Assembly (NCBI GenBank): GCA_963746775.1
Contig: CAVVCK010000001.1
Coordinates: forward strand, 275,050 to 339,049
Source of the DNA: an uncultured bacterium
GTDB lineage: Bacteria > Patescibacteriota > JABMPQ01 > CAVVCK01
Reading direction: 5' to 3'
Length of the DNA stretch: 64,000 bases
The notes below the pieces were generated by a model. It was not told the DNA's origin and made no database searches. It worked only from the letters and a program-made list of their open reading frames with translations. The translations under genes were made by a program, and so were the position numbers. Of the stretch, positions 594-62,489 are shown piece after piece; positions within the stretch are counted from its first letter, which is position 1; the number at the start of each line of letters is the position of its first letter.

Positions 594-656
594 TTTTTAT
601 TCTCTTACAAGCCCGTAGGGCTACTAAATTCTACATTATAAATTATACATTCTATC

Positions 657-1025
657 CTACCGGCTCATAAAATAAAATTCAAGTAAAGTTACCGATCCAA
701 CCAATAATACTCCATCCCACCAGGTAAGTAGCCTAAATGATTGTAATATTAACGAAATAGTCAAAATTAATGATAATAAAATTGCTTGTCTAAAAGATGG
801 TACTACGTGTGCAAATAAAACTTCATTTCTAGTAAACCAAACTCTTAAATAAAATCCAGCAATAGTCAGTGTTCCAATAACAGCAAAAAATAAGCTAACA
901 TAAAAAGATAAAAAGCCAATAAAACCAGTTTGCTCCGGATCAATATAAACTAAAATTAAAATCCAAGAAGCCCAGCAGAACAAGGTTGAGATGAACATGC
1001 CTATTAAATACGAGCGCAAGGTCAT
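657..1025 (-). CDS. Small polytopic membrane protein of unknown function.
   Basis: 122 aa, about four hydrophobic helices, and plausible spacing to neighbours. Confidence 0.45.
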   Translation of the reverse strand: MTLRSYLIGMFISTLFCWASWILILVYIDPEQTGFIGFLSFYVSLFFAVIGTLTIAGFYLRVWFTRNEVLFAHVVPSFRQAILLSLILTISLILQSFRLLTWWDGVLLVGSVTLLEFYFMSR

Positions 1026-1147
1026 ATAAAGTTTTATTTTAAAGTAATTATTTGTAAATTTCTAATACCTAATATCCAATTCCTAATAAAATAGTAAATG
1101 TCCAATTTATAAATTAATTATTAGACATTTTATTGGAAATTAGAAAT

Positions 1148-1182
1148 TGTCGCCTCTAACAGCGACCTGCCGAAGAGGCATG
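1148..1182. repeat. Imperfect hairpin element gcctct-N-agaggc. It is related to the hairpin nested at 12405-12433.
   Basis: cgcctctaacagcgacctgccgaagaggc here versus gcctctgacggtaactcgccgttagaggc at 12405-12433. Confidence 0.4.
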
Positions 1183-1253
1183 GGTAATTAGAAATTTTTA
1201 CAGCTTTGTCTTTTCTAGATAATACCTAATTTTTATCTTTTCGTAAACAATAA

Positions 1254-3890
1254 TTAGCTAACCACTTCAAAATGACTCCCCTCCTCATCCTTCGTAACTT
1301 CTATCCTCGACTGAAACATATCTTTTAAGCTCTGAATATGCGTAATAATTAGAATCTTTTTAAAATCATCCTTAATAGAATTAATAGCATCTATGATATA
1401 CTCCTGACCAATACTATCCTGAGTACCAAAACCTTCGTCAATTACTAAAAGCTGCAATTTAGCTCCAGATCGTTTGGCTAAAAGTTTTGATAGAGCAATG
1501 CGAATAGCAAAATTAATACGAAAAGCTTCCCCGCCCGAAAACATTTCATAATCTCTATTGCCCTGTTCATCGATTATCTGTATGTCTAATGTTTCCTGCA
1601 AGGCTCCATCTGTTTTCTTTTCTCTCTGCGTTAAAAATTTAACCTCCATACAACCATCAGTCATTTTGGATAATAATTTATTAGCTTCTTCTTCTATTTC
1701 GGGAATAGCTGATTCAATAATCATCGCCTGAATACCGGTTTTGCTAAAAGCTTGAGCTAATTCATTATAAATTGAACTCTCTGTACTCGCTTTTTTTAAT
1801 TTTTTCTTTCTATCTTTTAATTCCGTCTCTTGCGATTTTAGTCTGTCTAATTTTTCTTTAACAGCTCCGTATTCTGATTGGATGCTGGATATTTGCATTC
1901 TTAATTCTTGTAATTCCTTGTTTTCTTCAATTAATTTAGACATTATAGAATCCAAGTTTTTAACTTCAATTATTAATTTTTCTCGCTTTGTCCTACTTTC
2001 TTCCAATAGCTTTTTCTTCTTTTCTCTGTCATTTTTATTTTTCTCTAAATATTCCTTATTACCTTTTTCTTGCTCGAGCGCCAAAGTTAAATCATTGTGT
2101 AACTTATCGTAAATCATTAATTTGTTAATCTGTACTTCTATATTTTTATGTTTATTTTCATTATAGATTAGTTTTTTCAACTCATTTTCAACTCTATCTA
2201 ATTCTTTGACACTTTCTAAATCAAAATTTCCTTTCTCCATTTCCTGCACTAAATTTTTATTTTTCTCTTTTAAATTTTTTAAATCTTTTTCTTTTATCAC
2301 TAACTCCTCTAAAGATTTTTCTAAATTATAGAACTTTCTTTCTTCCTCTTTCTGCTTAATAAGTTTCTGTTCTAATTCTTTTATTTCATTTTGTAATTCT
2401 AAAATTTTATTATCATAAATTTTTTCTTTTTCATCTAATTTTTTATACTCCTCTCTTCTATTACTTATTTCCTTATCTAAATCTAATAAAACTTTTTCTT
2501 TATGCTCATCACCTAATTTTTGATTGCAAGTAGGACAAGTGCCTTTTAGTTTTTTGATTGTTTCTATTTTTTGTCTTAGTTCTAAACCCAGAGCTTGAAT
2601 TTGTGATTTCTGTGTTCGAAGTTCTGTTTTCTTTTCACTGCCCGACTGCACTCTTTTAATATTTTCCTCTTTCTTTCCTTCTAATTTTTTAAATTCTGCT
2701 AATTTATTTTGAGATTCTTTTAATTCTTTTTTTGTTTTATTTTTATTTTTTACATCTTCCTCATATTCTTTTATTTTTTCTAAAATATTAGCCTGCTCTA
2801 TTTCAATTTTCTTTTTGCTATCAGAAATTTTATTGTTTAATTGATTTTTTTGCGATTCTAGAGAAAATTGCTTTATGCGTACTTTAGTTAAACGATCATT
2901 TTCTAATTTTAATTCTTGCAGTTCCCTATACCCTCTTTTAATTTCATTTCCCTTAGAAATTATTTCTTTTATTTTTTGAAATTTTTGTTCTTTCTCTTCA
3001 AATTCATTTTTTAAATTTTCAATTTCACTTTCTAATTCATCAATTCTAAAAGTTAAATCTTGAGTTTCTTTTTTCTTTATTTCTAAATTATTTCTTTTTG
3101 AAGTTAAATCTTCTACCTCTTTTTCTTTGGCTTCAATCTCCACTTGTGCCTTATCTAAAATTATTTTTATTTTCTTCTCCTCTTCTTCAAAATTCTCCTT
3201 TGAATCTAATTCTTCTGATAAACTCTCCAGTAACTGCTCTGAGCTTTCTTTCTCTATATCACGGCTGCGGCGTAATTCTTTGGCTCGCTCTTGCAATTGG
3301 TCGTAATACGATAGCCCCAAGATATCTGCCAAAATTGCTTTGCGCTCAATTGGTTTCTTAATAGTAAATTCATCAGCGTGACCTTGTCGCAGAAAAGCAG
3401 AATTTACAAAAGTATCATAATCCATACGTAAAATTTCAATGACCCTGTCTTGCGTCTCCGCTTTAGAATGTTCTGATACAGATCGCCAATTATCATTATC
3501 TATCTCTAACAACTGATTTTCTCCTGATCCCGTTCCTTCCGCCTCATCGGCGGACTTCGTCGCGATCATAAAATCAAAACTGCCTGAAGTAGCAAACCCA
3601 CCTTTCTTCTTTTTCTTCTTAATTCTTTTTCTAATCACTCTGTATCTCGAGCCTTCTAATTCAAATTCAAAATCAACCCACATCTCCTCGGTCCCTAATT
3701 TAATTAGATCATCGTCAGATTTAGCTCTGGATTTACCCCATAGTGCCCAAGTAACTGATTCCAGCAAAGTAGATTTACCTACTCCATTATTGCCACTAAG
3801 ACAAGCCAAATCTAACCCTCTAAAATCAAGAGGTTCTACTTGCTCACCATAAGACATGAAGTTGTGAAGTTGTAATTTGATTGGTAGCAT
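1254..3890 (-). CDS. sbcC: SbcC/Rad50-family DNA repair ATPase.
   Basis: N-terminal Walker A (GNNGVGKST), a very long coiled coil with a central CPTC zinc hook, and C-terminal signature/Walker B (LLVIDEGFGTQD). It is directly followed by sbcD. Confidence 0.85.
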   Translation of the reverse strand: MLPIKLQLHNFMSYGEQVEPLDFRGLDLACLSGNNGVGKSTLLESVTWALWGKSRAKSDDDLIKLGTEEMWVDFEFELEGSRYRVIRKRIKKKKKKGGFATSGSFDFMIATKSADEAEGTGSGENQLLEIDNDNWRSVSEHSKAETQDRVIEILRMDYDTFVNSAFLRQGHADEFTIKKPIERKAILADILGLSYYDQLQERAKELRRSRDIEKESSEQLLESLSEELDSKENFEEEEKKIKIILDKAQVEIEAKEKEVEDLTSKRNNLEIKKKETQDLTFRIDELESEIENLKNEFEEKEQKFQKIKEIISKGNEIKRGYRELQELKLENDRLTKVRIKQFSLESQKNQLNNKISDSKKKIEIEQANILEKIKEYEEDVKNKNKTKKELKESQNKLAEFKKLEGKKEENIKRVQSGSEKKTELRTQKSQIQALGLELRQKIETIKKLKGTCPTCNQKLGDEHKEKVLLDLDKEISNRREEYKKLDEKEKIYDNKILELQNEIKELEQKLIKQKEEERKFYNLEKSLEELVIKEKDLKNLKEKNKNLVQEMEKGNFDLESVKELDRVENELKKLIYNENKHKNIEVQINKLMIYDKLHNDLTLALEQEKGNKEYLEKNKNDREKKKKLLEESRTKREKLIIEVKNLDSIMSKLIEENKELQELRMQISSIQSEYGAVKEKLDRLKSQETELKDRKKKLKKASTESSIYNELAQAFSKTGIQAMIIESAIPEIEEEANKLLSKMTDGCMEVKFLTQREKKTDGALQETLDIQIIDEQGNRDYEMFSGGEAFRINFAIRIALSKLLAKRSGAKLQLLVIDEGFGTQDSIGQEYIIDAINSIKDDFKKILIITHIQSLKDMFQSRIEVTKDEEGSHFEVVS

Positions 3891-3999
3891 AACAAAATTT
3901 ATTACTAGCGTAATTAGAAAGAAATTGGTAATAGAAACTAGAAAATTGTAATTCTAATTTCCAATTTCAATTTTCCAAACAGCTATTTTCAATTACAAA

Positions 4000-22485: not shown

Positions 22486-23097
22486 ATGTTTAAAGAATCA
22501 GCGGAACCCATAATGCCAGAAAATAGAAAAATCGAAGAACCAAAGTTAGACACTACAGAGGAAGAAGAACGAAACAATGATGAAACTTTTGAAAAAAGGT
22601 GTTTCTCTGAAAATATGCGGGATCGTCTTTTTTATTTTTTAGCTACAAAATTCAGTTCCCAGATAAATCAATATGACCTAGAAGAAATAATACAAGAGAC
22701 TTTATTAAAAGCTTACAGAGCTAGAAATAGGTATGATTCTGAAAGAGGTGAACTTAGCACTTGGCTATTCCATATTGCCAAAAACACTGCCCTAAATCAT
22801 TTAAAAAAAATATCCCGTCGATCTAAGGAATATCCGGAAGAAGAAATAGATAAGTTCCCCGAAGGAAGCAGCAGCGTAGAAAATAGATTGGGTGCAAAAG
22901 AAGAGGTTGCAGAATATTTAAAAAAATTATCTTATAGGCGTAAAACAATATTAGAACTCCACTTTATAGAAGGACTCACTTATGCTGAAATTGCTGAAAA
23001 AATTGGAGTAAAATATCAAACAATTGGTTCGACTATAACTAAAGCAAGAAAACAAATGAGAAGTGCTAGAAAAAAAAATATACAAGAAACAAATTAA
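22486..23097 (+). CDS. ECF-type sigma-70 family RNA polymerase sigma factor.
   Basis: Region 2 (LLKAYRARNRYDSERGELSTWLFHIAKNTALNHLKK) and region 4 HTH (LTYAEIAEKIGVKYQTIGSTITKARKQMR). Confidence 0.8.
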   Translation: MFKESAEPIMPENRKIEEPKLDTTEEEERNNDETFEKRCFSENMRDRLFYFLATKFSSQINQYDLEEIIQETLLKAYRARNRYDSERGELSTWLFHIAKNTALNHLKKISRRSKEYPEEEIDKFPEGSSSVENRLGAKEEVAEYLKKLSYRRKTILELHFIEGLTYAEIAEKIGVKYQTIGSTITKARKQMRSARKKNIQETN

Positions 23098-23111
23098 ACA
23101 ATTTAAAAAAT

Positions 23112-23366
23112 ATGGCCGAATCAATTACATTTTTTATCGCTGCAATCTTCAGTTCCTTTTTTATTTTATTCTTTTTAATTTGGTTTTTTGTTTTAGGAAT
23201 TATTTTACTAAGTCTGGTTTTTTGGATTTTGATGATTGTGGACCTGACCAAAAGAAAATTTGAAAAAGAAAATGATAAGGTTACTTGGCTTTTAATTGTA
23301 CTCTTAACAGGTGCAATTGGCGCTATTATTTATTATGTTGAGATTAAGAGAAAGGACCAGAAATAA
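23112..23366 (+). CDS. Small two-TM PLDc_N-type membrane protein (YxlE-like). It is a candidate partner or anti-sigma component for the upstream ECF sigma.
   Basis: FWILMIVDLTKRKF...WLLIVLLTGAIGAIIYYV matches the phospholipase-D N-terminal-like small membrane protein pattern. It begins 15 bp after the sigma gene. Confidence 0.5.
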   Translation: MAESITFFIAAIFSSFFILFFLIWFFVLGIILLSLVFWILMIVDLTKRKFEKENDKVTWLLIVLLTGAIGAIIYYVEIKRKDQK

Positions 23367-23376
23367 TTATACTTTC

Positions 23377-24060
23377 TTAATTTGGCTCTATTTCAAAAAT
23401 TAATTTCTTCTCACCCATATATAAAAATTCTAATTTTCCCACCTCTTTTTGCACTTCATAAATAACTTGACCATCTATCCATCCTTCACTGGGAATATTT
23501 TGCACTCCTTTTATTAGATTATACTCATCAGTATTTATTGTTTTCATATTATATTCTGTATAACGCGAATCACGTAAAATAAAATTAGTACTATAAAAAT
23601 ACGTTTCTTCCATTGTTTGATTCATAATATTCATTCTTAAAACTAAAAATTCATATCCTTCTCTGGGTTTTTCTTTCCCTATTTCTTCTCTATGTTCTAC
23701 AATACTCAAGGAAATAGAAACATTTCCATCTGAGAGGATGTCACCTTCTTTGCCATTTTCTTCTTCTAGCTGCTGATTTTCTGTGTTATCATTTTCTGTT
23801 CCCCTAGTAATTTTCTGCCATTCATTTTGCCAATCACTATTACTAATTGTACTTAATCTTTCTTCTGTACTATCTTCTACCTTATTAGCCAAATATTTAA
23901 TTAAAATATAGGAACCAACTCCTAGGGCAAACATTAAGAATAGAAATATAATCAAAATAGTATACCAAAATTTTTTTCTTTTTTTGCTATACTTATTTTG
24001 TTCTTGAATATTTTTCTCTTTAATTTTTCGGCTATCAAATCCTATATTATTTTTTGACAT
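23377..24060 (-). CDS. Membrane-anchored protein with a DUF4352-like beta-sandwich domain.
   Basis: N-terminal TM helix. The C-terminal region GYEFLVLRMNIMNQ...FILRDSRYTEY resembles the DUF4352 pattern. Confidence 0.4.
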   Translation of the reverse strand: MSKNNIGFDSRKIKEKNIQEQNKYSKKRKKFWYTILIIFLFLMFALGVGSYILIKYLANKVEDSTEERLSTISNSDWQNEWQKITRGTENDNTENQQLEEENGKEGDILSDGNVSISLSIVEHREEIGKEKPREGYEFLVLRMNIMNQTMEETYFYSTNFILRDSRYTEYNMKTINTDEYNLIKGVQNIPSEGWIDGQVIYEVQKEVGKLEFLYMGEKKLIFEIEPN

Positions 24061-34006: not shown

Positions 34007-34324
34007 TTACTTCTCTTTAGATTTTTCAGAAGGAGGAGTTAATTCCTCTCCTTGCGGAGAAGGAACTCCAAGCTCCTCTGGTGTCGTGCCTTCCCCCCTT
34101 TTTTTAGATCCAGTAAGACTCCTACCAGTTCTAGCTTCTTCTTCTACAATTGAGCTTTCTGTATCTGCTATCGCCTTACATATAGTACAATCTCTATAAA
34201 ATCTACCATGCGGACATTTTTTCATAACCTCTCTAGGTGTCTTTGGCTTGTTGCAAACAGGACACGAACCTCTTTCATTGCCATGATCGCACATATCAAT
34301 ATCAGTACTTAATTCCTCTCTCAT
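34007..34324 (-). CDS. Small Cys4+ zinc-ribbon protein.
   Basis: CDHGNERGSCPVCNK ... CPHGRFYRDCTICK. Confidence 0.5.
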   Translation of the reverse strand: MREELSTDIDMCDHGNERGSCPVCNKPKTPREVMKKCPHGRFYRDCTICKAIADTESSIVEEEARTGRSLTGSKKRGEGTTPEELGVPSPQGEELTPPSEKSKEK

Positions 34325-48559: not shown

Positions 48560-49063
48560 ATGCTTTCTAGGCTGATCTTTTTGGTTGTTTCTTTCACTTT
48601 ACTAGCTGCTATTTGCCCCCAGCACCAGTATATTACATCGAACCACAACAACAATCCCAGCTCCAGCCGCTACCTCAAACGCAATCTCCTGTTTATCAGG
48701 AGAACTACCCAACGAGATACTATCAAACCTACCGACAACCATACACCTACCAACCAACATACTACCACAACTACAACAGACATTATTCAACACCACCTCA
48801 ACGCCACTACTATAGACCTGCACCTCGATACTACCACAGACCGACTACACCACCAGTTCAACACCACTATTCAAGTCCACCTCGTAGAAGTTACAGACCA
48901 CCACCCCAGCGCTATAGACCAACCCCAAGACCTCGATTTCGCCCTCCTCCTCAGTACCGCCGCCACCGAGGCCATCATGACCACGACAGAGGTGGTGGTG
49001 GACATCACCGCCGTCATTAGCTCCTTCCCCCAAAGACCCACCTCGCGGTCTTTTTTCATTTAA
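48560..49063 (+). CDS. Putative secreted low-complexity protein. The frame is uncertain because an overlapping P/Y/Q/R-rich frame at 48613-49020 is equally open.
   Basis: A strong SD (aggagaaaatcATG) and a signal-peptide-like N-terminus are followed by T/H/D-rich low complexity. The local DNA is C/A-rich, about 50% GC, unlike the rest of the window. Confidence 0.3.
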   Translation: MLSRLIFLVVSFTLLAAICPQHQYITSNHNNNPSSSRYLKRNLLFIRRTTQRDTIKPTDNHTPTNQHTTTTTTDIIQHHLNATTIDLHLDTTTDRLHHQFNTTIQVHLVEVTDHHPSAIDQPQDLDFALLLSTAATEAIMTTTEVVVDITAVISSFPQRPTSRSFFI

Positions 49064-49523: not shown

Positions 49524-50480
49524 TTAATTTCCACAAAACTTCATCACTAACATATCTAAAAGCAATTTTTTATTAAAAGCCCCACCAGTTTTAAAAGATA
49601 TATCAGCTTCAAGTAAATCATGGTACATTATTTTTAATTTCTCTAAATTAAAACTATTAATTTGAGATATGGTTTTCTTTACTACATAAGGATGAAGCTT
49701 AGCCTGACTAGCTATTCCCTGCTGATCAATGCCTTGCTCACTCAAACTTTTTATAATTATCAAATTTCTTAATTGATACGAAATCATAGTTAACAGATAT
49801 ATTTCATTTTGCCCCTGCTCTATCTGTTCATGTAATAATTTCAAAGCTGCACTTTTATCCCTACGACCCAGAGCATCTACAAAATTAAAAATATTATCAT
49901 CTAGCTTTGCCTTAACTTGCGAATCAACATCTTTTTCTACAATTTCTTCTCCTAATCTATAAGCAATTAATTTGTCTATTTCGCAATTCATTTGACTTAA
50001 ATTATTACCAACAAAAGCACCAAGTTTTGATACTGCTCCCCTGCTTATTTTTCCTCCTCTGATCTTTACTTCATTATCAATCCACTGATTTAATTGATAA
50101 CCATAAAAAGGATTAAATTCTTCCACTCTACCAACTTTATTTAACAATTTATAAAGTCGGGTATTTTTTTTAACTTTATTACTTTCAAATAAGATAACAT
50201 TATTACTCTCAGGTATTTCTTTATTAGCAATCAAATCATAGAATTTTTCCTGGATACTTTTATAACCCTTAGATATTAAATTATTAATTATAATTAATCT
50301 TGATTTAGCTAAAAATGGCTGAGCTTGGATGGCTTCTTTTATGCTTTTATATTCTACATCTTCAATATCAAAAGTAGCTAAATTTATTTTAGATGGATCT
50401 TGTTTAATAAAATTTGCTTTAATTTTATTTAACCTTTGGCGAGATTGATATTTGTCTTCGCCGTATATTAAGTAGATCAT
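49524..50480 (-). CDS. holA: DNA polymerase III delta subunit.
   Basis: MIYLIYGEDKY... N-terminus and AAA+-like clamp-loader delta architecture, about 320 aa. Confidence 0.75.
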   Translation of the reverse strand: MIYLIYGEDKYQSRQRLNKIKANFIKQDPSKINLATFDIEDVEYKSIKEAIQAQPFLAKSRLIIINNLISKGYKSIQEKFYDLIANKEIPESNNVILFESNKVKKNTRLYKLLNKVGRVEEFNPFYGYQLNQWIDNEVKIRGGKISRGAVSKLGAFVGNNLSQMNCEIDKLIAYRLGEEIVEKDVDSQVKAKLDDNIFNFVDALGRRDKSAALKLLHEQIEQGQNEIYLLTMISYQLRNLIIIKSLSEQGIDQQGIASQAKLHPYVVKKTISQINSFNLEKLKIMYHDLLEADISFKTGGAFNKKLLLDMLVMKFCGN

Positions 50481-50492
50481 GTTTTTTTCTTT

Positions 50493-50513
50493 CCCCTCCT
50501 TACCAAGGAGGGG
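50493..50513. repeat. GC-rich hairpin cccctcctt-acc-aaggagggg (left flank of the DUF559 remnant). It overlaps the holA ribosome-binding site.
   Basis: Perfect 9-bp stem. It is related to the element at 50914-50943. Confidence 0.5.
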
Positions 50514-50537
50514 TAGGGGTGGTTTACAAATGTGATT

Positions 50538-50883
50538 TCAAATACCTTTTAGTACTCTTTCTAAATCATAATATATTTCTAGATTGGTAAAGCGTAAAAT
50601 ATTAAATCCTATAGATTTTATATATTCTTCTCTTTTATTATCATATTCTCGAGCGTAATTATCAATAAAATGAGAATCACCATCTAGTTCTATAATAAGT
50701 TTTTCTCTAGGACAACAAAAGTCTGTTATATATTTACCAATACTATACTGTCTTCTGAATTTATAACCTAGTATCTTTTTTTCCTTTCAATTCATACCAT
50801 GACAATATTTCAGCTGGAGGCATATTACTTATTAATCCTTGTCTTTTCTTTTTTATTTCATTCTTATTGAATATTTTGGTCAT
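50538..50883 (-). pseudogene. DUF559 / Vsr-like PD-(D/E)xK endonuclease domain gene with a single frameshift in an A7 homopolymer.
   Basis: Frame 1 gives MTKIFNKNEIKKKRQGLISNMPPAEILSWYELKGKKDTRL*. The shifted frame gives GYKFRRQYSIGKYITDFCCPREKLIIELDGDSHFIDNYAREYDNKREEYIKSIGFNILRFTNLEIYYDLERVLKGI*. Together they match the DUF559 consensus (LR..MT.aE..LW, kFRRQ.piG.Y.vDF.c, ElDG..H, vlRf.N.ev). Confidence 0.7.
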
Positions 50884-50913
50884 CTATCTTAAATCGCAAG
50901 AACATTGTGAAAA

Positions 50914-50943
50914 CCCCTCCTACCTCCCCTTGGTAAGAGGAGG
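50914..50943. repeat. GC-rich imperfect hairpin cccctcctacc...ggtaagaggagg (right flank), just after the polA stop.
   Basis: Shares cccctcct(t)acc and aggagg arms with 50493-50513. Confidence 0.5.
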
Positions 50944-50945
50944 AA

Positions 50946-53705
50946 TTAAATTTTCAAATCCTCCATACTTCCCCAACTATCCCCCACCTCCATATCAATC
51001 TTCAAAGGTATATCTAACTTATAAATATTTTCCATTATATTTTTAATTTTTTCAGCATATTTTTCTAACTTATCCTCTTTTATTTCAAAAATCAATTCAT
51101 CATGTACTTGTAAAATCATTTTTAAATCACTATTATTCTTATCTAAATTAAATTCTTCAAAAATTTTAATCATAGCTAACTTTATAATATCAGCCGCTGT
51201 CCCTTGTAAGGGCATGTTAACAGCCATACGTTCCGCTGCTGCTCGAAGCATTGGTTGTTTAGCTGTAATTTCAGGTAAATATCTTCTTCTACCTAATTGT
51301 GTTTCTACATACCCCTTTTTATTAGCAAATTCCAAAGTCTCTTCTGTATATTTTTTTATACTCGGAAAAGTTTTAAAATATTTATCAATAAAATCTTTTG
51401 CTTCATCTCGACTTATCTCTAAATTTCTTGAAAGCGCACCCGAACCCATACCATAAATTACTCCAAAATTAATAGTCTTAGCAAATCTTCTTTCATCATA
51501 ATCTATATCGCCTATATCCTTGCCAAAAACTAGGGAAGCAGTTCTTTTGTGAATATCTTCATCATTTTTAAAAGCTTCCATTAAATTTTCATCTTTAGAC
51601 ATTTGCGCTACTAATCGAAGTTCGATTTGGGAATAATCGGCTGATAACAATTTACAACCAGATTCTGCCACAAAAGCTTTTCTAATTTCTCTGCCTATTT
51701 CCGTTCGAATAGGAATATTTTGAATATTAGGATCAGAAGATGACAGCCTGCCGGTAGAGGTTATAGTTTGGTTAAAAGAAGTGTGAATCCGTCCTGTTTT
51801 AGAATTAATTAATTTAGGTAAAGCATCGATATAGGTATTTTTCAATTTATTATGCTCCCGATATTCTTCAATTAGAGGAATAATAGGATGAGCACCATGT
51901 AATTTTAAAAGTTCCGGAGCTGCCGTCGAATAACCTAGGGTTGTTTTCTTGATCCCTTTGGTGGGAATTTTTAATTTTTCAAATAAAATTACCGATAACT
52001 GCTGGGTAGAATTAATATTAAAATCTGAGGTCCTCGCTTGCTCATAAATTTTCTTTTCTAAGCTCGCTAGTTTATTAGCAAAGCTATCAGAAAGTTTTTC
52101 TAAAAATTTACTGTCTACTTTTATCCCATCCATTTCCATATAGGCCAAGACATTCAGTAAAGGCATTTCAATATCCTGAAATACTTTTTGCAACTTTTTT
52201 TCTTTGATTAATTTTTTAAAAAATATTTCCTTGAGTCGGTAAGTATAATCAGCATCTTCACAAGAGTAATAAGCCAATTTCTCTAAATCAACTTCTCCTA
52301 TTTTAATTTTACTCTTTCCTTTGCCAACCAATTCATCATAGCTCATCATTTGATGGCCTAATTCCTGAAAAGCTAAATTATCTAAAGAATTTCCTCTGGA
52401 ATTAGATGACAAAATATAGGAAGCAATCATGGTATCAAAATCTATATTAGATAATTCTAAGCCATAATTTTTTAAAACTATTAAATCATATTTACCATTT
52501 TGGGCAATCTTTTTTATATCTTTATTTTCTAAAATTATTTCTAGCTTATTTTTCAGATCTTCAAATTTATCAATAACATTTCTCGGCAAATACCAGGAGT
52601 TATTCTCTACCGAAAACGATATGCCAACTAATTCAGCTTCAACTGGTTTTACACTGGTCGTCTCGGTATCTATAGCAAATTCTTCAACTTTTTCTAAAAT
52701 ATTTATTAAATTTTTAAATTTTTCCTTACTATCAACTAATTCATAATTGAATTTTCTCAAATCTATTTTTTCTTTTGCATCTTTACTTTCTCCCATTAAG
52801 AGACTTTGCTGTTTTCCATCTGATTTACTTTCTGGCAACCTGGAAAGTAAACTTCTAAATTCTAATTCTCTTAAAAGTTCAATCACCTTATCTTTGTCAT
52901 AATCCTTAACTTCACACTCTTTTAAATCTATTTTTAAGTCCATATCAATTATAATCGTTGCTAATTCCTTGCTCATTCTGGCCTGCTTTTCTTGCTCTAG
53001 TAAAATTTTTCTAATTCGATCTGATACCCCTTCAATTTTTTCTGACTTTTTTAATTCTTTATATAAATTTTCAATAGTACTAAATCTTTGCAATAAAATA
53101 GAGGCAGTCTTCTCGCCTATTCCTTTTACTCCGGGAATATTATCAGAAGGATCGCCTCGAAGGCCTTTGTAATCAATTAACTGCTCTGGTGTAATACCAA
53201 ATCTCTCTATTACCTTTTTTTCATCGTAAAATACTGTGTCCTGCATACCACGACGCATAGTATAAACCTTGGTATTATTATCCACTAATTGTAATTCGTC
53301 CAAATCACCGGTAACAATAATATTATTTATTTTTATTTTCTTAGATAAAGTTCCAATTATATCATCAGCTTCATACCCTTGTTTCTCATAAATGGGAATA
53401 TTAAAAGCTTCAACTATTTGTTTAATTCTCGTAATTTGATCATATAATTCCTGGGGAGCTTTTACTCTGGTTGCCTTATATTCTTTGTACATTTTATGTC
53501 TAAAAGTAGGCCCCTTCATATCAAAAGCAACCGCAATATGAGTCGGCTTTATATCTTCTATAGCTTTAAGTAAAATAGAGGTAAAACCAAAAACAGAATT
53601 AACTAATTCACCGGATTTCGTAGTTAAAGGAGGAATGGCGTGATAGGCCCGATGAATTAAGGCATTGCCGTCTATGAGAACAAATTTAGATTTATTTTTT
53701 GTCAT
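50946..53705 (-). CDS. polA: DNA polymerase I.
   Basis: 5'-3' exonuclease N-terminus (LIDGNALIHRAYHA), 3'-5' exo-like middle, and polymerase motifs A (DYSQIELR), B (RRxAKxxNFGxxYG) and C (QVHDE). Confidence 0.9.
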   Translation of the reverse strand: MTKNKSKFVLIDGNALIHRAYHAIPPLTTKSGELVNSVFGFTSILLKAIEDIKPTHIAVAFDMKGPTFRHKMYKEYKATRVKAPQELYDQITRIKQIVEAFNIPIYEKQGYEADDIIGTLSKKIKINNIIVTGDLDELQLVDNNTKVYTMRRGMQDTVFYDEKKVIERFGITPEQLIDYKGLRGDPSDNIPGVKGIGEKTASILLQRFSTIENLYKELKKSEKIEGVSDRIRKILLEQEKQARMSKELATIIIDMDLKIDLKECEVKDYDKDKVIELLRELEFRSLLSRLPESKSDGKQQSLLMGESKDAKEKIDLRKFNYELVDSKEKFKNLINILEKVEEFAIDTETTSVKPVEAELVGISFSVENNSWYLPRNVIDKFEDLKNKLEIILENKDIKKIAQNGKYDLIVLKNYGLELSNIDFDTMIASYILSSNSRGNSLDNLAFQELGHQMMSYDELVGKGKSKIKIGEVDLEKLAYYSCEDADYTYRLKEIFFKKLIKEKKLQKVFQDIEMPLLNVLAYMEMDGIKVDSKFLEKLSDSFANKLASLEKKIYEQARTSDFNINSTQQLSVILFEKLKIPTKGIKKTTLGYSTAAPELLKLHGAHPIIPLIEEYREHNKLKNTYIDALPKLINSKTGRIHTSFNQTITSTGRLSSSDPNIQNIPIRTEIGREIRKAFVAESGCKLLSADYSQIELRLVAQMSKDENLMEAFKNDEDIHKRTASLVFGKDIGDIDYDERRFAKTINFGVIYGMGSGALSRNLEISRDEAKDFIDKYFKTFPSIKKYTEETLEFANKKGYVETQLGRRRYLPEITAKQPMLRAAAERMAVNMPLQGTAADIIKLAMIKIFEEFNLDKNNSDLKMILQVHDELIFEIKEDKLEKYAEKIKNIMENIYKLDIPLKIDMEVGDSWGSMEDLKI

Positions 53706-53809: not shown

Positions 53810-56800
53810 CTATTCCTCCACCTCCACCTTCGTCCCCACCCCAACTATATAGAAGCCTTCATTAAGTAATTCGGAATCCTTAGAATAAAATCTGGCATGA
53901 GTAGGCCCTTGAATAGGAGTAATTATCATATCCTTTTCTTTTGAACCTCCTTGTAATTCGTCATTATGAAAATTAAATGCCTGCACTTTAGTCTTGCCAT
54001 CTGTATGCTCTGGATAGGCCATGAAGCCGGCAGTAATAGGTTGGCCCTCTTTATTAAATATCCTCACATGAGCAGAATACATTTGAGCTACTGTTATAAT
54101 TTCAGCCGGACCCGAAGTACTATCTAGGTCGGTGGCTTCTAAATCTATACCACCATGATAGGTTGGATCATAAGCGTAAAAATCAGGTCTTAATTTCTTA
54201 CCATTTTTATTAAATATTCTAACTACGCTGGATCCTTTCTTAGAACCTACAACTATTTCTTTCTCTCCACCTGTACCATCCAAATCAGCTACCGATAAAA
54301 CTATGCCTTGATTGTAATCAGTACTGTTTTTGTCAAAAGGAATAATGTCAGGAATAATTTGTTTTAGTTTTTTGGTCTCAGGGTCTTTACCATAAATCAT
54401 AATAGTATTATGGTCAGAGACTAATACTTCCTTAGCCCCATTATTATTTTCTAGATCTACTACATCCAAATCGAAAAGTATATCCTTAACTGATTGATAA
54501 TTCTGTAGATAAGGTAAAAAGGCAGTGATTGGAGACATGATTTCCTTACCGTCTCTATTAAAGACTTTGAGAATACCATCGGAAAAAAGAATAATAATCT
54601 CTAAATCACCACTGTCTTGATCTGGTCCTTCCAGATTAGCTATTTTAACTATACTGTTACCTCGGAAGGAGTCTTCTCGGGCGAAGAAGGAATTTAATAC
54701 CTTCCCGTCCTTATTGAAGATACGAATGTGGGCTGCTCCATCCATAGGAGAAGTTACTATTTCTTGTTCTCCTCCTGTTCCCTGAAGGTCACCCACAGCA
54801 ATGTTTACTCCATTGGTGTAGGATTTGTCATAAGCTAAAAAAGGAGGGGTTAAGATAAAGCCTTCTTTAGAATAGATTCTAACGTAGGGAGCACCACTTC
54901 GGGGAGCGGTGACTATTTCTTTAGTACCGTCGTAAGTTAAATCAGCTACTTCAATATTGGCTCCGTCATCTATTATGCCTTGTTCTTCTTCTAACCTAAT
55001 GTCTTCTTCTGTTTTGGTTGTTTGGGCACGCCAGATTTCAGTTACACCCTCTTCGGTTAAACTATCTACGGTAGGTTCTTCGGCTGGAGTAATTAAGAAG
55101 ATATAATCGGAAAGAATAGTTTGATTTTGAGCATAGTCGCGGATGCGGATTTCGAGAGTAACTTGTTCGTTTACTTCAAAGTCTCTTTCAGGAATAAGGG
55201 TTACTTTAAAATCAGAAGCCGACCCATCAAAGGCTTTGGTAATATTTTTATGTATTCCTGAACTTGAACCAGTAACAGTTGTACGCAAAGTTCCAATATC
55301 TACTCCGCTCTCGCTATCTTTGGCATGAAATGAAATAGTAGTATTAGGTGATATCTTTATAGCTCCCTTTTCCGGTGAAAGATCGGTAATAGTGGGCGGT
55401 GTAATATCACCGATTGCTCCACCTTCTTTAGTAGTGAAAGACCAGGCCGAAGTAGCAGAATTAGTTCCGTCAGACGCCAGAATAAAAACATTTACTTCTT
55501 GTAAATAATCAAAATCATTATCAGGATTAAGAGTTACATTATAACCTCCTGTACCATCAGAAGTAATGGTACAAGAATAATTACTCTCGCAAGAACCATT
55601 ATTTATAGCCGGACTGCCTTCAATTAAAACATTTAAAGTACTTATATTTATACCAGTATAAATATCATCTAATTCAAAATAAATATTGGTATCTATACCC
55701 ACATTAGTAGCTCCATCAGCCGGTGACTGATGAGAAATAGTAGGAGTTGTAACATCGGGATCAGCATCTGTCGTTCCAGAGTCCGTACCATCAAAAGCTG
55801 TCTCAATACCATCTTCATTGCGAGCCTTAGCGCGAGCAGTATAAGATGTTTCGGCACTAAGCCCAGTCACTGTGGTCGTCCCCCAGGCTGCTTTTGTCTG
55901 CCAAACCTCGCTGGCACCCAAAAATCCATCAGCTTGCACATAATAATCATTAGTACCATCAGATATTCGGATAGCATAAGTAGTATAAGCAGGATTACTA
56001 TCACTACCTAAGGTAACATCGAGAGAATTATTAGTAACATTACTAATGTTAGGTTGTCCGGGAACTTCTGCTAGAGTATAAAGACTATCCGTTCCGCCAA
56101 AAGCTGTTTCTACATCATCACCATTACGAGCTTTGGTCTGGAAATCATAGGAAGTATTAAGGCTAAGACCAGTTACAGTGACTGTACTCCAAGTAGCATT
56201 ATCTTGCCAGATAGCAGTAGCGCCTAGGGATCCATCAGCTTGTACGTAATTACCAGATCCAGTTTCTTGAATAGCAAATTCAGTATTACTAGGATTAGAA
56301 TTAACATCAAAAGCAACATCTAAAGTAGAGGTTGTAGGATTACTCACTACTAAAGCGCCAGGGGTATTAGCCGCAGTGTAGGTAACTATCTCCGTAGCGT
56401 TAGCTTTATTTCCATAACTATCATACGTCCAAATATTAGCTACATACTGGGTATTAACATTAAGAGGATTAGTCGTTGTGGTACCACCAGGAGTATATGC
56501 TCCAGTTGCAATAGTAGTATGCAGAGTATCCGTCTCAGTTACACCAGATGCTCCTTGTTTATAATAAATAGAATAATGATCTAGATTAGTATCACTGCCG
56601 GCTGCACCCAAGGTATAAATAATTGAGTTAGCAGTAATAGAATCAATCATTAAATTACCAGAGGTCGTGGGATCTACATTGTCAAGAGTCAAGGTTGTAT
56701 CAGCCGAAACAGAAGGAGTTAAACCGTTATGAGCAGTAGTCCTAACACAATAAGTACCGTCAGCTGCTGGCTCATCCGTAGCCGACAACCAATCAAAATC

Positions 56801-59800
56801 TACAGTGTTGGTACCCACATCAACCACCGAGACACTGCCTACTTGATATTCATTACTATTGTTAATAGTAGGGGTACCACTATCTGCGCTATATGTTCCC
56901 ACGGTAGTATCTATAGTGGGATCAGATGTTCCTGCTGAACAATCAGCACCTGCTTTGTATTCTAGTTTAGCAGATAAAATACCCGAAGTATTTAGATCAT
57001 CTAGTTCTAAACTTATATCAACTGCTCCAGTACCATCAGTTTTCTCTGCCACTGAATTGATAGCATTATACGAAGTAGCTATAATAAATGACATATTAGA
57101 TAAAATGGCAGTTTCTCCTTCATCAGCATGTAAATAAGCCCTAACGTTAAAATCACCTCCCAAAGATAAATTTGCTAAACAAGTATTCGTAATACCAATA
57201 GCTGTATTAGTCTGAGCATAGTCATCAGCGGCTGAGGTTAGAGTATCCCCTACACAATAATTCCATGTAGTACCACCATCATCTGATATTTGATATCTTA
57301 CTTCGCCAGTTCCAGAAGAAGTAGCATTAAAATTATAAACCGAGTAAAAAGAATGAGAAGCATCAAATACTATTTTCTGATCAATTGAAGAAGGAATATT
57401 TGTCTCGTCATCTAAAGTATAAAAAGTACTAGGATCCGATTGATTGGAATAAGCGGCTTTAATCCAGTTAGCATCTCTATTAGTACTAGAAACCCTTAAC
57501 TCGTCTATACTGCCATCAAAATATCTATTTGGTATATCATAATTATGGTTATAATAAGCGCCGCCTATTTTACCTATATTGTGCCAGGTATTAGAATCAT
57601 AAATAATAGTTCCGCTTGATCCTAGGCTTATAGTTTGTAATAAGCTGCCATTACGATAAAAATAGCCATTGTTTCCATCTTTAACTACAGACAATAATTG
57701 CCATTCGCCAGTAGTATAAGCTCCAGGACTCGTTTCTGTTGTATCATCATCATTGTCACCGTTTATATCAAAAACAATAGTTCGATTATTAGTATCACCC
57801 GAAAGACCAAACATCCAGCCAGAATCTGTGCCAGGTATATCATACCTATTATCAAATATCACACCGGCATCATCAGAATCAGAATAAATCCAAGCTGATA
57901 TACTAAAAGATTCGGTAGTAAAATCAGTATTAGCACCAGAAGTTACACTATAAAAAGAACTAGAACCATTAAAAGTATCAGCTCCATCAAGCCAAGTTGG
58001 ACCACTAACATCCTGGGTAACACTAGTAGGAGTTGCGGTATTAGAATTAGCGGAATCATCTATATTTCCTGAAGTCTCATTCATATGCCAAACAGTTTCA
58101 AAATTACCATCCCCACTCCAAGTACCACTCACATTTTCCTGACTGCCAATAGTATTATTACCATAATACATATATATTTCAGTACCTAAGGCTAAAGAAG
58201 GAATGTTAACCCAAGCAACTAGCTCACCAGTTGCTCCATCAAAATATTCTATCTCATGATCTAATTTTACATCTGCCATAGAAGCAAATAATATATCCTC
58301 ACCATTACTCTGAGCATCCGCTGCTAGATCTGAATCAGAAGATAAGGAAATCAGTACAGGAAAATTAGTCTGAGTTGCCGGCAGTAAAGAACTGTTGTTA
58401 GTAAAAGTAATCTTTTTACGCGAAGCCCAATCAATATCGTACCAATCACTAGAATATGAAAACTGAGCATCTCCTGCTGAATAAGTAATGTCATCATCAA
58501 CAGTATATAAATCATCACTATAAAAATTTCTACTTATAGGTAAATATCCCGGATCGGTTTGAATAGTAAAATTATTTTCACTAGTATAGCAAGTATTGCT
58601 GCCATCATTATTACTACAAACTCTTAATTTAACAGTTGTACTGGATATATTAGGAATTGTCCAAACATAAGATTTTATTTCTGTGGGCGCACTAGTCGAG
58701 ATAACCGAAGAAGTTACTTCTGTTGAAGATCCAAAGTCATCTGTTGAATAATATATGTTTACCGTCTCATTACTCTCCCCACCAGATGAACCCCATAAAA
58801 TAGGTACTTGCTGTCCCTGCCCCACTGTTCCTCCTTGATCAAAGTTATATAATTCTATTGCCCTAGGTGCATAAAAGGTAGATTCCGTTGATGACCAAAT
58901 CCCAGCCCCATAAGCATTGCTAAATCTTATGCGCCAATAATAGGTTGTATTATATGATAATTGAGATCCATCATAAGTTATATTACCGCTCCTAACTCCA
59001 TCAGCTATATCGACAATATCAACATTACTTGACCACAAGGTAGAAGAAAAATCAGAGTTATCATCCACTTCTATATCTGCTGTAATACAATTACCAGACG
59101 GTGTATTACAGATAGCAGAAAAAACTGGAGTTAAATCTGTTATATTGGTAGGATTAATATCACCAGTTGAAGCATCAGTGCTATGCGAATACAAAATATC
59201 AGGAGCCGAAGGAGATAGTTGTGATGAGGAAAATAAACCATCGCTGCCATTTACTCCACCACCAGAAGTAGTACCGCCAGTTCGAGTAACATTTCCTGAA
59301 TTAATACTATTTGAGATAATATACTCTAATAAGACACATCCCCCTCCCCCTCCCCCTCCACCATTCGAAGTATTTCCACCAGTTACCGTAAAACTAGCAG
59401 GTGTGCCAGCTATAGTATCAGCACTAATTTTTACACCACCACCTGCTCCACCCCCAGAATAGCCACTAGCAGCAGCGTTACTGCCATCAGCCGTAATAGT
59501 ACCATCAATAGTTGCAGTTCCGCTAACATCAAAAATAATTAGACCACCACCATTACCAGTATTATAGTTACTGCCTGCATAAGTTGTTCTCCCACCACCA
59601 GAACCCATAGTATCAGGATCAGTAATATCACAATAAGCTGTACCACCAGCATCTCCTTCATCATCATTTCCTCCATTTCCACCATGCGCTCCTCCACTAC
59701 CACTATTTCCGGAACCAAGTATTCCTGGTCCTAATCCATAACCATCTCTATGACTAGTCGTACCACCATCATACCCTACTCCATCAACACTAGCTGAGGC

Positions 59801-62489
59801 AGAAATACCAATATTTAAACTTGAGGCTACAATATTCAAAATATGAGTTTGGGAATCAAAATTATCTCCATGAGTTAGAATCCCTCCTGTCATTACTAAA
59901 TCATCAATTGATAAAGCAGTTGCAGTAGTATAGCTATTTAAAGTTGTAGTACCTCCTGTTATGGTAAGATCAGTAAGGGAAAATGTAGCCCCGCTATCTA
60001 ATCCTAGACTGCCAGCTGTAGTAATGGTGGTTATAGGCGTGTTAGCAGTAGCTCCACTCCCCAATATCAAACCGCCATCATTAGTAATATTAATAGTGGA
60101 CGTATTATTAATTTGTCCACCAGAAACTATAGATACATCAAGATTATCATAACTATTGCCTGTATTATAAGTAAATGTACCCGCAACCTCTAACGTACCT
60201 GTCTCATCTCCCCCAAAAGGACTGGCATCACTGACTGTTAAAGATTTCCCATTAGACACAACATAATTTGCTTCACTACTTAGCGCTATAAAATCAACAG
60301 TTAAAGAACTTATTGCTTGGGTAGAATCTGCCCCTTTTGTACCATTATTTTCTACAAATAAATCTCCATTGGTTCCGTCTTGTTTAATTAGAACTTGCCC
60401 ACCACCACCGTATTGGCCACTTGCCGAAGCAGTTCCACCATAAGTAGCAATAGAAGCAACATCAAGAATACTAGAAGAAGTGGTATATTCTAACAACATG
60501 CAACCTCCGCCTCCGCCTCCGCCTCCATTAGTAAACACTGCTGCCTGTGGCTGTAACACTAGTTGGCGTACCGGCAATAATATCAGCTGATATCTTGATA
60601 CTACCGCCTGCACCGCCGCCAGCATAATTAGAATCATGTGTTACTGCATCGGCTGTAACAGTACCATCAATAGTAACTGTACCGGAAGCATCGAGAATAA
60701 TTAAACCGCCACCGTCACCGCCGCCGTATGATCCATTATAACCTACGGCACCACCCGAACCTATAGTGGCTGGATTAGATATATCACAATAGGCTGTGCC
60801 GCCTCCTTCACCAGCAGAATCATCTCCTCCATCACCACCATGACCCGCACCACCACCAAAGCTATTAGCAATACCATATATCCCAGCACCAGGTCCATAA
60901 CCATTCGTATGACTAACAACCTTACCACCATCATAACCCTTGCCATCAGCGTTGATAGAAGCAGCAGCTCCAATGTTAGCACTAGAAGCAGAAATATTAA
61001 TTACGTTAGTCTGAGCACTAGAGTTATCACTATGAGTTAGAACCCCTCCAGTCATTACCAAATCACCTAAAGATAGAGCATCAACAGCGGAATAATTGTA
61101 TAGAGTAACAGTACCACTACTTATATTTAAATCAGCCATAACAAAAGTAGCACCTTGATCTAAGCCTAAAGTGCCGGCAGTATTAACTGTATTCATTATT
61201 GTATCAACCGTAGCTCCATCACCAAGTATTAATCCACCATCATTAGTAATATTAATAGTAGTTGTATTACTCAAAATTCCACCAGATAGAACTGAAACAG
61301 TTAAATTATCATAATTACTACCTACTGTATAATCAAAACTTCCAGAAACTTTTAATAGTCCAGTTCCATCTCCCTCAAAAGGACTAGCCTTAGTAACTGC
61401 AAAAGATTCCCCGTTGGGAACTAAATAGTTAGCCTCATTACTAACAGTAATAGAATCAACTGTTAGCGAATTAGCCACCGTATCTTGACTAGAATCTGCC
61501 CCTTCCGTACCGTTATTTTCTATAAATAAATCTCCATTAGTTCCGTCTTGTTTAATTAGAACTTGCCCACCGCCACCATATTGGCCACTGCCAGTACTAC
61601 CACCATACATATCGATAGCAGAAACATCGAAAACAGGAGTAGATGTGTATTCTAATAGTACACAACCTCCGCCTCCGCCACCTGGAGTAAAAGACGTATT
61701 ACTACCAATCGCGGTAAAACTGGAAGGAGTACCAGCAATGACATCAGCACTAATCTTAATCCCACCACCAGACCCGCCACCGGCATATTGACTACTATGC
61801 GCTACTGCATCGGCTGTAATAGTACCATCAATAGTTACAGTTCCTTCAGCATGGAGAATAATTAGACCACCACCGTCACCGCCGTCGTATGATCCATTAT
61901 AACCTACGGCACCACCCGAACCTATAGTGGCTGGATTAGATATATCACAATAGGCTGTGCCGCCTCCTTCACCAGCAGAAACATTTCCCCCGTCACCGCC
62001 GTGTCCGGCACCACCACCAGCATTACTAGCAGTATATATCCCCGCTCCTGGACCATAACCATTCGTATGACTAAAAACTGTACCTCCATCATAACCCTTG
62101 CCATCAGCGTTGATAGAAGCACCAGAATAAACTGTAATGTCGGTATGAGATGTTATGTCTATAGAATAAATTTGGGTAGTAGAATTATCTTGATGAGTAA
62201 GTACCGTTGTATCACCACCTACACTACCTACAACCAAAGAATTTACCGTAGCTGAATTAGTAAGAGTACAGGTACCATTGCCATAAAGAGTCAAATCATC
62301 ACCACTATTAAAGTCAACACCTTGGGCAATACTAGGATTAGTAGAACAATCAATCGAAGCTGGAGCAGCAGTAGTGGACTTTAATTCATAGGTTCTTAAT
62401 ATTAAAAAAGCAATAAGAAAAAATACGGAAATAAAAAATCCCGCTTTTAAAAATTTTAATAATATTCTTTTTGTATTTTTATTTTTCAT
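53810..62489 (-). CDS. Giant secreted/surface protein gene, about 2890 codons if read across the internal frameshift near 60528-60545. The track splits it into 60528-62489 and 53810-60637.
   Basis: N-terminal signal/TM (MKNKNTKRILLKFLKAGFFISVFFLIAF). Three ~385-aa Gly-rich beta-helix-like tandem repeats (GYDGG..., GGGTAYCDI, GGGGGGC.LLEY, QVLIKQDGTNGDLF). Further along are FN3-like beta domains, a LamG/concanavalin-like segment (ELRVSSTNRDANWIKAAY) and C-terminal FG-GAP-like propeller repeats (IVTAPRSGAPYVRIY, AAHIRIFNKDGK...). The first ~40 codons of the 53810-60637 track ORF (MILIM...) are the out-of-frame reading of the repeat, not a real start. Confidence 0.65.
60530..62300. repeat. Near-identical tandem repeat of about 1.16 kb within the giant gene. 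There are about 1.5 high-identity copies plus a more diverged third copy near 59300-60500.
   Basis: Identical stretches occur at an offset of about 1161 bp, e.g. cggcaccacccgaacctatagtggctggattagatatatcacaataggctgtgccgcctccttcaccagcagaa at about 60739 and again at about 61900. Paired spurious track ORFs sit at 60761/61922 and 60840/62001. Confidence 0.75.

Follow-up and report, generated by a model that had tools for sequence, protein, structure and literature searches.

The 64-kb stretch of DNA analysed here (the window; WIN in comparisons between loci) carries polA and holA as neighbours, separated by a gap of 465 nt. The gap contains no long open reading frame (ORF), in agreement with the initial annotation, which had called no gene in it. 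On the minus strand, 40 codons run from the ATG of the nuclease gene to a TAA at 50761-50763, and a second frame extends from 50786 down to a TGA at 50538-50540. If an A7 run is read as A6, the two frames join into one that encodes a 114-aa product and ends at this TGA; the ancestral stop, a TAA, corresponds to 50524-50526. In the direction of the gene, the gap is made up of an inward-facing triplex motif, a conserved leader, the nuclease gene, and, on the opposite strand, another inward-facing motif (Table 1).

Table 1. Features in and around the polA-holA gap, in window coordinates, listed from polA to holA
Feature	Position	Strand	Remarks
polA	50946-53705	-	stop codon 50946-50948
Right member, 43-nt terminal inverted repeat	50908..50950	.	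overlaps polA stop
Upstream (5') arm, CCTCCTCTT-acc-AAGGGGAGG-ta-GGAGGGGTT	50912..50943	-	intrastrand triplex motif, reads toward gene
Conserved 5' leader, TTTTCACAATGTTCTTGCGATTTAAGATAG	50884..50911	-	between upstream arm and ATG
DUF559/Vsr-like PD-(D/E)xK nuclease gene	50524..50883	-	ATG 50883; two frames as assembled
A7 run with single frame break	50776..50782	-	T7 on + strand
10-nt deletion junction, GTAC/TAAAA	50547..50556	-	~50551/50552; relative to all close homologues
Downstream (3') arm, CCCCTCCTT-acc-AAGGAGGGG-ta-GGGGTGGTT	50493..50524	+	triplex motif, reads toward gene
Left member, 43-nt terminal inverted repeat	50486..50528	.	pairs with 50908-50950, 77% complementary
holA	49524-50480	-	downstream neighbour of gap

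The DUF559 endonuclease that had been proposed for the minus strand of the gap was borne out by a search with the Pfam profile PF04480. With one A removed, the 114-aa product matched this profile with E=4.1e-28 and 97.9 bits (cut-off, 20.6). The alignment covered profile positions 4-104 of 109; the match thus spans the frame break and, as had been stated, the whole length of the family. Only the Pfam domains DUF559 and MTES_1575, both of the PD-(D/E)xK type, were detected in the product. Comparison with PDB entry 3HRL gave E=3e-18, with the DF...ExDGxxH core aligned; residues D54, F55, E65, D67, G68, and H71, which have counterparts in 3HRL and show little or no variation across the family alignment, are all kept, and the protein alignment shows the complete set of family-invariant residues in the window's protein. 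In fold and DF...ExDGxxH motif, the protein matches other DUF559 members, i.e., E. coli YcjD, the N. gonorrhoeae protein 3HRL, and Caulobacter VsrA, for the last of which a role in T:G repair has been proposed. The window product is, as judged from its sequence, a clear member of the DUF559 family and a putative endonuclease. Its nearest homologues have 122 aa and are 66-89% identical to it. The score against the NCBIfam YcjD equivalog (62.9 bits) was below the threshold of 218, PHROGs yielded only a weak match to an HNH-annotated family, and an exact-sequence look-up of the 114-aa protein returned no match. A component of anti-phage defence is not indicated, as the PADLOC models gave only a marginal mREase_II match (E=0.0035) and the neighbours are polA and holA rather than defence genes. 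A tblastn search for DUF559 returned 3 phage records and 48 records labelled as plasmids, several of the latter being in fact chromosomes; the unit is therefore not mainly plasmid- or phage-borne. Within the unit, promoter-like sites occurred at chance level, with no consensus promoter, and no terminator was predicted by the rule of the tool used.

The initial annotation had the frame of the nuclease gene break once, within the A7 run. The position of the break held, but a 10-nt deletion proved to be a second difference from the relatives. According to DNA and protein alignments, this deletion replaces the last 11 residues, NKIKRYLKSHL, by KGI and leaves the window's product 8 residues shorter at the C-terminus than its homologues. 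At the site of the break, the relatives have A6, AAAGAA, or TAAAAA in the DNA alignment. An independent assembly of the window's organism, the Logan contig L096 (run ERR11571143, 2453 nt), is identical to the window across 2453 nt save three sites. Specifically, A6 in place of A7 results in an intact 114-aa DUF559 ORF, G for T at 50831 restores the near-invariant R18, and GG for G near 48597 restores a coherent ORF, whose product has a signal peptide and a region rich in P/Q/Y. The 10-nt deletion is common to the window and L096 and is consequently real. The A6 allele of L096 supports the earlier suggestion that a homopolymer error hides an intact gene. We consider an assembly error a good deal likelier than not to be the cause of the A7 frame break; it is probably this or, at most, a recent strain-level lesion, and the frameshift as such probably has no biological basis. 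In that case, the actual gene would in all probability be the intact 114-aa ORF with the shortened C-terminus.

A genuine pseudogene, in which the window's strain has recently acquired the extra A together with R18I, the intact A6 allele belonging to a sister strain, appears rather unlikely. In its favour, of the three sites at which the window departs from L096, two are located inside the 345-nt DUF559 gene, and both changes lead away from the family consensus. Moreover, most long ORFs of the window are intact, up to 6.8 kb in length, which indicates that indel errors are infrequent in it and that A7 could be a genuine strain variant, and a gene-less derivative found elsewhere (described below) shows that units of this kind decay. 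Against it, the third difference from L096 is also a 1-nt indel, breaking an otherwise coherent ORF, and a giant surface-protein gene of the window is likewise split by a 1-nt shift within a repeat unit, near 60530-60545; this pattern is typical of residual consensus errors. In addition, the catalytic and the invariant residues of the nuclease have all been retained. A scan of homopolymers for further assembly frameshifts returned false positives only, among them an A9 run at 23070 between a sigma-factor gene and a small membrane ORF. It is scarcely credible that programmed +1 frameshifting or transcriptional slippage on A7 makes the full-length protein: the break does sit in a homopolymer, and A runs are known to allow slippage in AT-rich genomes, but efficient slippage usually takes a run longer than A7, and slippage is unlikely because no relative has a shifted frame at this site; nor does the independent assembly L096, with its A6.

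The related hairpins that had been noted at both ends of the gap are part of a 43-nt inverted repeat. Each of the two arms comprises a pyrimidine arm, a Watson-Crick purine arm, and a mirror-repeat purine box. The third block mirrors the purine arm and, with T tolerated opposite A, gives nine consecutive purine-motif triads per arm. The downstream arm has the layout 9+3+9+2+9 nt, is perfect in its nine triads as well as in its 9-bp hairpin (50493-50513), and ends 12 nt from the holA ATG. The upstream arm likewise has nine triads, with one G.T pair in the stem and a calculated fold of -18 kcal/mol; it is followed by TTTT and begins 2 nt after the polA stop, which it had correctly been said to abut. 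The ITxF definition of triplex motifs, i.e., three consecutive blocks with stems of 6-15 nt, no more than one mismatch, and loops of 1-6 nt, describes both arms, the right one with its single G.T. Both are clear members, on the evidence of these blocks, of the BoxC/PIT/TMECO class of putative intrastrand triplexes (Hoyne et al. 2000; Holder et al. 2015, PMC4666352). Common to these motifs and the window arms are a C/T arm, a short loop, a complementary G/A arm, a loop of 2-3 nt, and a mirror-repeat purine box, and both are G/C-rich, intergenic, and often arranged in inverted pairs. The sequences of the arms, too, agree with those given by Holder et al. 2015. Unlike the dispersed BoxC/PIT/TMECO motifs, the window arms form the two ends of a nuclease-gene unit.

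Many dispersed copies were not seen, the two flanking arms being the only ones within the 64-kb window. A three-part finder run over the 64 kb returned the two arms and one weak 6-nt match at 34042-34064, compared with 0-1 matches in shuffles; the hairpin pattern, for which zero matches were expected in shuffled sequence, had no further occurrence in the 64 kb, and no second DUF559 copy was found there. The folding energies of the hairpins alone are unexceptional for their composition (z = -1.6 and -2.2). A search of Rfam with positions 50400-51050 at E<=10 gave sub-threshold noise only; the arms thus resemble none of the known RNA families. A two-tetrad G-quadruplex could also be formed by the purine half of the window arms, as has been noted for the E. 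coli version of the motif. Since purine-motif triplexes do not form in RNA (PMC4666352), the conserved mirror box points to a role at the DNA level. Note that the purine half of the left arm resembles AAGGAGG and that its GGAGG is 14 nt away from the holA ATG, a greater distance than is usual for a Shine-Dalgarno sequence; the overlap of the left arm with a holA Shine-Dalgarno sequence, as initially annotated, is unproven.

The same unit was found in other contexts. Its neighbours are again polA and holA in L002, L087, and L088, whose DUF559 proteins are 78%, 86%, and 68% identical to that of the window, respectively; in L086 (89% identical) they are iPGM and holA, in L001 (84%) the unit lies upstream of a PTAC gene, and in L003 (72%) the neighbours are a NiFeSe-hydrogenase gene and hypA. 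Window-type arms surround the gene in all of these loci, and gene and arms thus occur together in at least three other genomic contexts; the upstream arm type of the window is also located 5' of the gene in L002, L086, L087, and L001. Between the window and L002 or L088, polA is 80-83% and holA 72-77% identical, and consequently the unit has remained at the polA-holA junction through substantial divergence. It has been present there since before the lineages of the window, L002, and L088 diverged.

Empty polA-holA junctions, with holA next to polA, were identified in comparably distant relatives by protein search and contig look-ups. In L097/L098 the spacer is 107 nt long and holA is 77% identical, in L101/L102 these values are 66 nt and 53%, and neither DUF559 nor a triplex motif was detected in the 5-9 kb covered at these sites. 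A metagenome scan with HolA returned two loci only, neither of them an empty site. In L089, a different DUF559 (115 aa) with different arms is located upstream of holA. A gene-less derivative is present in L003 at positions 1711-1817, where 23 nt left over from the leader and first codons separate one arm from the other; it is the one such derivative seen in the lineage of the window, with none in the 64-kb window itself. As L003 and L088 share sample and coverage, one genome probably holds two full copies and one relic. These occurrences show that the unit is gained, lost, and relocated as a whole. The small cassette considered in the initial annotation is therefore substantiated by the other contexts, by junctions that lack both gene and arms, and by the gene-less arm pair. 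The cassette and the homopolymer-error readings are compatible, and both are supported; the cassette is real, and the frameshift should not be annotated as a pseudogene before the reads have been checked. A consistent target-site duplication was not found, the flanks being AT-rich and the outer ends not sharply defined, and no transposase gene is adjacent to the unit in any locus examined, nor does the product contain a transposase domain.

In all 21 pairs formed by seven close copies of the nuclease gene, dN/dS was between 0.07 and 0.26. The downstream arm is identical at 31/31 positions in WIN, L086, L001, and L002, at a synonymous divergence of 0.3-1.05, and the leader is nearly invariant among WIN, L086, L087, L001, and L002, with dS of the ORF again at 0.3-1.05. 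In the upstream arm, the purine half is near-invariant and the pyrimidine half drifts via C-to-T changes by which G.T pairing is kept. The low dN/dS values, together with arms that are more conserved than synonymous sites, argue that the unit is maintained; the nuclease gene is evidently under purifying selection rather than decaying, and the arms are constrained as well.

When one genome per GTDB species was scanned, 80 loci with 46-61% identity were obtained, from Patescibacteria, Nitrospirota, Cyanobacteria, Planctomycetota, Chloroflexota, Gammaproteobacteria, and others. The flanking inverted repeat exceeded 100/100 shuffles in 47 of the 79 testable GTDB loci, and the arms in these loci share the pattern CCCCTCCTT-nnn-AAGGAGGGG-T(n)AGGGGAGG and variants of it. 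With the formal finder, a triplex motif was detected within about 250 nt in 77/84 homologous loci and was absent nearby in 7/84. Motif density was 5.2/kb near the gene versus 0.21/kb elsewhere in the loci, corresponding to a 25-fold enrichment. Inward-facing motifs are present on both sides in 44 of the 84 loci; the innermost motif faces inward in 57/71 cases upstream (p=3e-7) and in 47/63 cases downstream (p=1e-4). Where the purine arm is asymmetric, the next box is a mirror repeat three times as often as a direct repeat, in counts that are redundant. The class of the motif tracks protein similarity (reached in 0/500 permutations), a relation confounded by host phylogeny. The pattern extends beyond this subfamily. 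In Pseudanabaena, the gene is flanked by 90-nt double-motif units (z=49), and the same gene-motif arrangement exists on plasmid pAQ6 of Picosynechococcus PCC 7002 and in N. gonorrhoeae. In E. coli K-12, the stop codon of ycjD lies inside a degenerate inward motif, with a 50-nt duplicate of the 3' end following it, and TMECO no. 9 of Holder (1351204-1351239) is located 168 nt downstream of ycjD. Overall, the same architecture surrounds DUF559 genes in many phyla.

Among known systems, REP/RAYT (REPtrons/REPINs) resembles the unit in that a single-copy gene is flanked by inverted, short, GC-rich structured repeats, gene-less inverted doublets occur elsewhere, and inheritance is vertical under purifying selection. 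RAYT is, however, an HUH/Y1 single-strand transposase and the window gene a PD-(D/E)xK nuclease, in which Pfam detects DUF559 and MTES_1575 only, so that identity with RAYT can be rejected; moreover, REP is a simple hairpin with a GTAG motif, whereas each of the window arms is a triplex motif of three parts with a mirror repeat. Features that the unit has in common with MITEs and the insertion sequences from which these derive are terminal inverted repeats of about 40 nt and an internally deleted gene-less derivative, here of about 105 nt (the relic in L003), but the window unit has no transposase of a known class and a very low copy number. An insertion sequence was accordingly dismissed, although 43-nt terminal inverted repeats are present.

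Our preferred interpretation, with a probability of roughly 0.6, is that the gap holds one gene-plus-repeat unit whose nuclease acts on its own flanking triplex repeats. The DUF559 nuclease would recognise these repeats, either folded (as hairpin, triplex, or G-quadruplex), which is the most plausible case, or in a sequence-specific form; nicking at the arms would trigger recombination or repair, by which the unit is copied, moved, or maintained, and such events at the arms might leave gene-less arm pairs behind. The relation would be like that of RAYT transposases to REP/REPIN repeats, although enzyme fold and DNA structure differ. Insertion between co-directional genes might, moreover, be rendered harmless by the arms. 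Distorted DNA is what Vsr-type enzymes recognise. Triplex motifs cause polymerases to stall and have been linked to instability (PMC4666352), and DUF559 proteins can damage DNA in vivo, as described for Caulobacter VsrA (PMC12907096). Recognition of the arms by DUF559 is suggested by co-localisation, which does not prove recognition. A PD-(D/E)xK nuclease of ~120 aa alone cannot perform strand transfer, which counts against the mechanism, and long residence at a single locus under purifying selection also fits a gene useful to the host.

An alternative that we consider improbable is that DUF559 is a domesticated housekeeping nuclease, a host repair enzyme that processes stalled forks or structures at selfish or structural repeats, and that the gene sits among repeats only because these accumulate there. 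In favour of this are the strong purifying selection and long vertical residence, the polymerase stalling and instability linked to triplex motifs (PMC4666352), and the 23 motifs of E. coli as against one ycjD. On the other hand, the sole two motifs in 64 kb are those on the gene, gene and arms are gained and lost together, and a bias toward inward-facing motifs speaks for a structured unit and not for motifs accumulating at random.

Slightly less probable still is a free-standing homing endonuclease that cuts the empty polA-holA junction, with repair copying the gene in and the arms only regulating expression. The location between two conserved essential genes agrees with this proposal, as do the presence/absence polymorphism at the junction (empty in L097/L098 and L101/L102, filled in WIN, L002, L087, and L088) and the different DUF559 variant at the corresponding spot in L089. 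Vsr-like (EDxHD) homing genes, such as that of I-Bth0305I and those in fractured genes (PMC2677866), are comparable in that a small Vsr-related nuclease gene lies in or between conserved genes, shows presence/absence polymorphism, and has a hairpin upstream of its start codon. Unlike the window's protein, however, these enzymes are larger, possess extra DNA-binding modules, act on one site, and are not accompanied by symmetric repeats, and a search at E<=10 found no sequence match between the window's protein and the solved EDxHD homing enzyme. Closely related copies (68-89% identical) at three or more unrelated junctions, symmetric arms, and gene-less arm pairs are not expected of a homing gene either, and dN/dS values of 0.07-0.26 over deep divergence argue against the invasion-and-decay cycle that is usual for such genes. 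A classical homing endonuclease gene with one cognate site was rejected in view of the several sites, the symmetric arms, and the purifying selection. Finally, it is very improbable that the arms are ordinary host signals, i.e., an intrinsic terminator of polA and an RBS-sequestering hairpin of holA, with an unrelated DUF559 gene and no cassette: the right arm does read on the minus strand as a GC-rich hairpin plus UUUU directly after the polA stop, and the AAGGAGG-like half of the left arm lies 12 nt before the holA ATG, but both arms flank the gene beside unrelated neighbours (hydrogenase/hypA, PTAC, iPGM), both arms are missing from relatives that lack the gene, a third, mirror-repeat box such as is conserved here is foreign to terminators and the terminator scan was empty, and a good Shine-Dalgarno sequence would lie closer to the ATG than the arm does.

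BoxC/PIT triplex motifs, of which catalogues exist since the 1990s, occur in large numbers in enterobacteria, cyanobacteria, and Neisseria and have been connected with genome instability. We know of no role assigned to DUF559, a very large family of small nucleases that includes E. coli YcjD. A unit of gene plus repeats may explain where orphan BoxC-type repeats come from. A broader proposal, which we put forward tentatively and with less confidence than the action of the nuclease on its own arms, is that DUF559 is the missing partner of the BoxC/PIT/TMECO motifs, the two forming a gene-repeat system that extends from Patescibacteria to E. coli and seeds gene-less copies in a REP/RAYT-like manner, but with an unrelated enzyme and an unrelated DNA structure. 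If true, this would represent a second independent case in which a domesticated nuclease coexists with a family of structured repeats. If DUF559 and the repeats do form a pair, the role of the former and the origin of the latter could both be tested in E. coli, where ycjD and the 23 TMECO copies of strain K-12 (PMC4666352) are available. Near TMECOs, no mobility function was found, and the origin of the motif was described as unclear (Holder et al., PMC4666352).

Going beyond the initial annotation are the assignment of the arms to the BoxC/PIT class of triplex motifs, the pairing of gene and motifs across phyla, and the purifying selection on the gene. Each component was already known, and it is the pairing of the DUF559 gene with BoxC/PIT-type repeats that appears to be new; in the literature searched for DUF559, PF04480/COG2852, ycjD, the arm sequences, and BoxC/triplex, no paper pairs the family with the repeats. 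In a 2023 survey, DUF559 proteins were 14-fold enriched among predicted inversion targets, a result left uncommented there.

With respect to its position between genes, the unit starts 0-14 nt past the upstream stop codon in about 10 loci (0-8 nt in the close family) and ends 11-17 nt before the downstream start codon in about seven, often at 11-12 nt in the close family. The idea that the arm donates a Shine-Dalgarno sequence or targets ribosome-binding sites was discarded, as most loci are without the 11-12-nt spacing. The loci in which this spacing to the next ATG clusters are WIN, L003, L088, L008, and one more.

In the sample ERZ24794656, two contigs carrying close relatives of the cassette (L003 and L088) display nearly equal coverage (6.15x and 6.38x, respectively), and each of them features a full cassette with an arm subtype common to both. 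L003 additionally harbors a gene-less relic of the cassette. One genome in this sample probably contains three copies.

In some of the relatives, the cassette is surrounded by a second, outer hairpin layer, which was seen at positions 3040-3100 and 3560-3600 of L002 as well as in the flanks of the related loci L086 and L087, with the sequences CTTCTCCCC...GGGGAGAAG and CTCCTCAGCTGAGGAGGGGAGGG. The window lacks this layer. The pattern suggests that insertions at the junction were nested or took place repeatedly.

Upstream of holA, the relative L089 (positions 500-1100) possesses a different DUF559 gene of 115 aa, whose arms are also different. Nested in the loop of an outer hairpin in this region is an element of 63 nt whose ends are perfect inverted repeats of 15 nt (CCACGTACGAAATTC...GAATTTCGTACGTGG). 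In L097, a relative having an empty polA-holA junction, polA (1-3893; >1348 aa) includes an intein with LAGLIDADG matches; unlike it, the 919-aa polA of the window contains no intein. Within the ycjD-fabI spacer of E. coli K-12 (L095, 7250-7400), there is a duplicate of approximately 50 nt of the 3' end of the DUF559 gene ycjD, flanked on one side by the degenerate motif located at the stop codon of ycjD and on the other by the E. coli triplex motif TMECO no. 9; it looks like a leftover of a second DUF559 copy.

Near position ~48597 (ORFs 48560-49063), the window reads G, whereas the independent contig L096 reads GG. The L096 allele results in a single coherent ORF of 153 aa, in which a P/Q/Y-rich region comes after a signal peptide, whereas in the window allele the frame changes downstream of the signal peptide. 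The giant surface-protein gene is divided in two ORFs by a frame shift within a repeat unit at 60525-60550 on the minus strand, the frames at the break being ...TATGSSVY* versus FTNGGGGGGGGC...; this is probably another consensus indel.

ORF pieces of the giant surface-protein gene in the window
Feature	Coordinates	Strand	Remark
Giant surface-protein gene, ORF pieces	60528-62489 and 53810-60637	-	1-nt frame shift

The region 22486-23400 of the window contains a gene for an ECF-type sigma factor, whose end lies shortly past an A9 run (23070-23078), and then a small membrane-protein ORF in a different frame. The two look like separate genes and not like the outcome of a frameshift.
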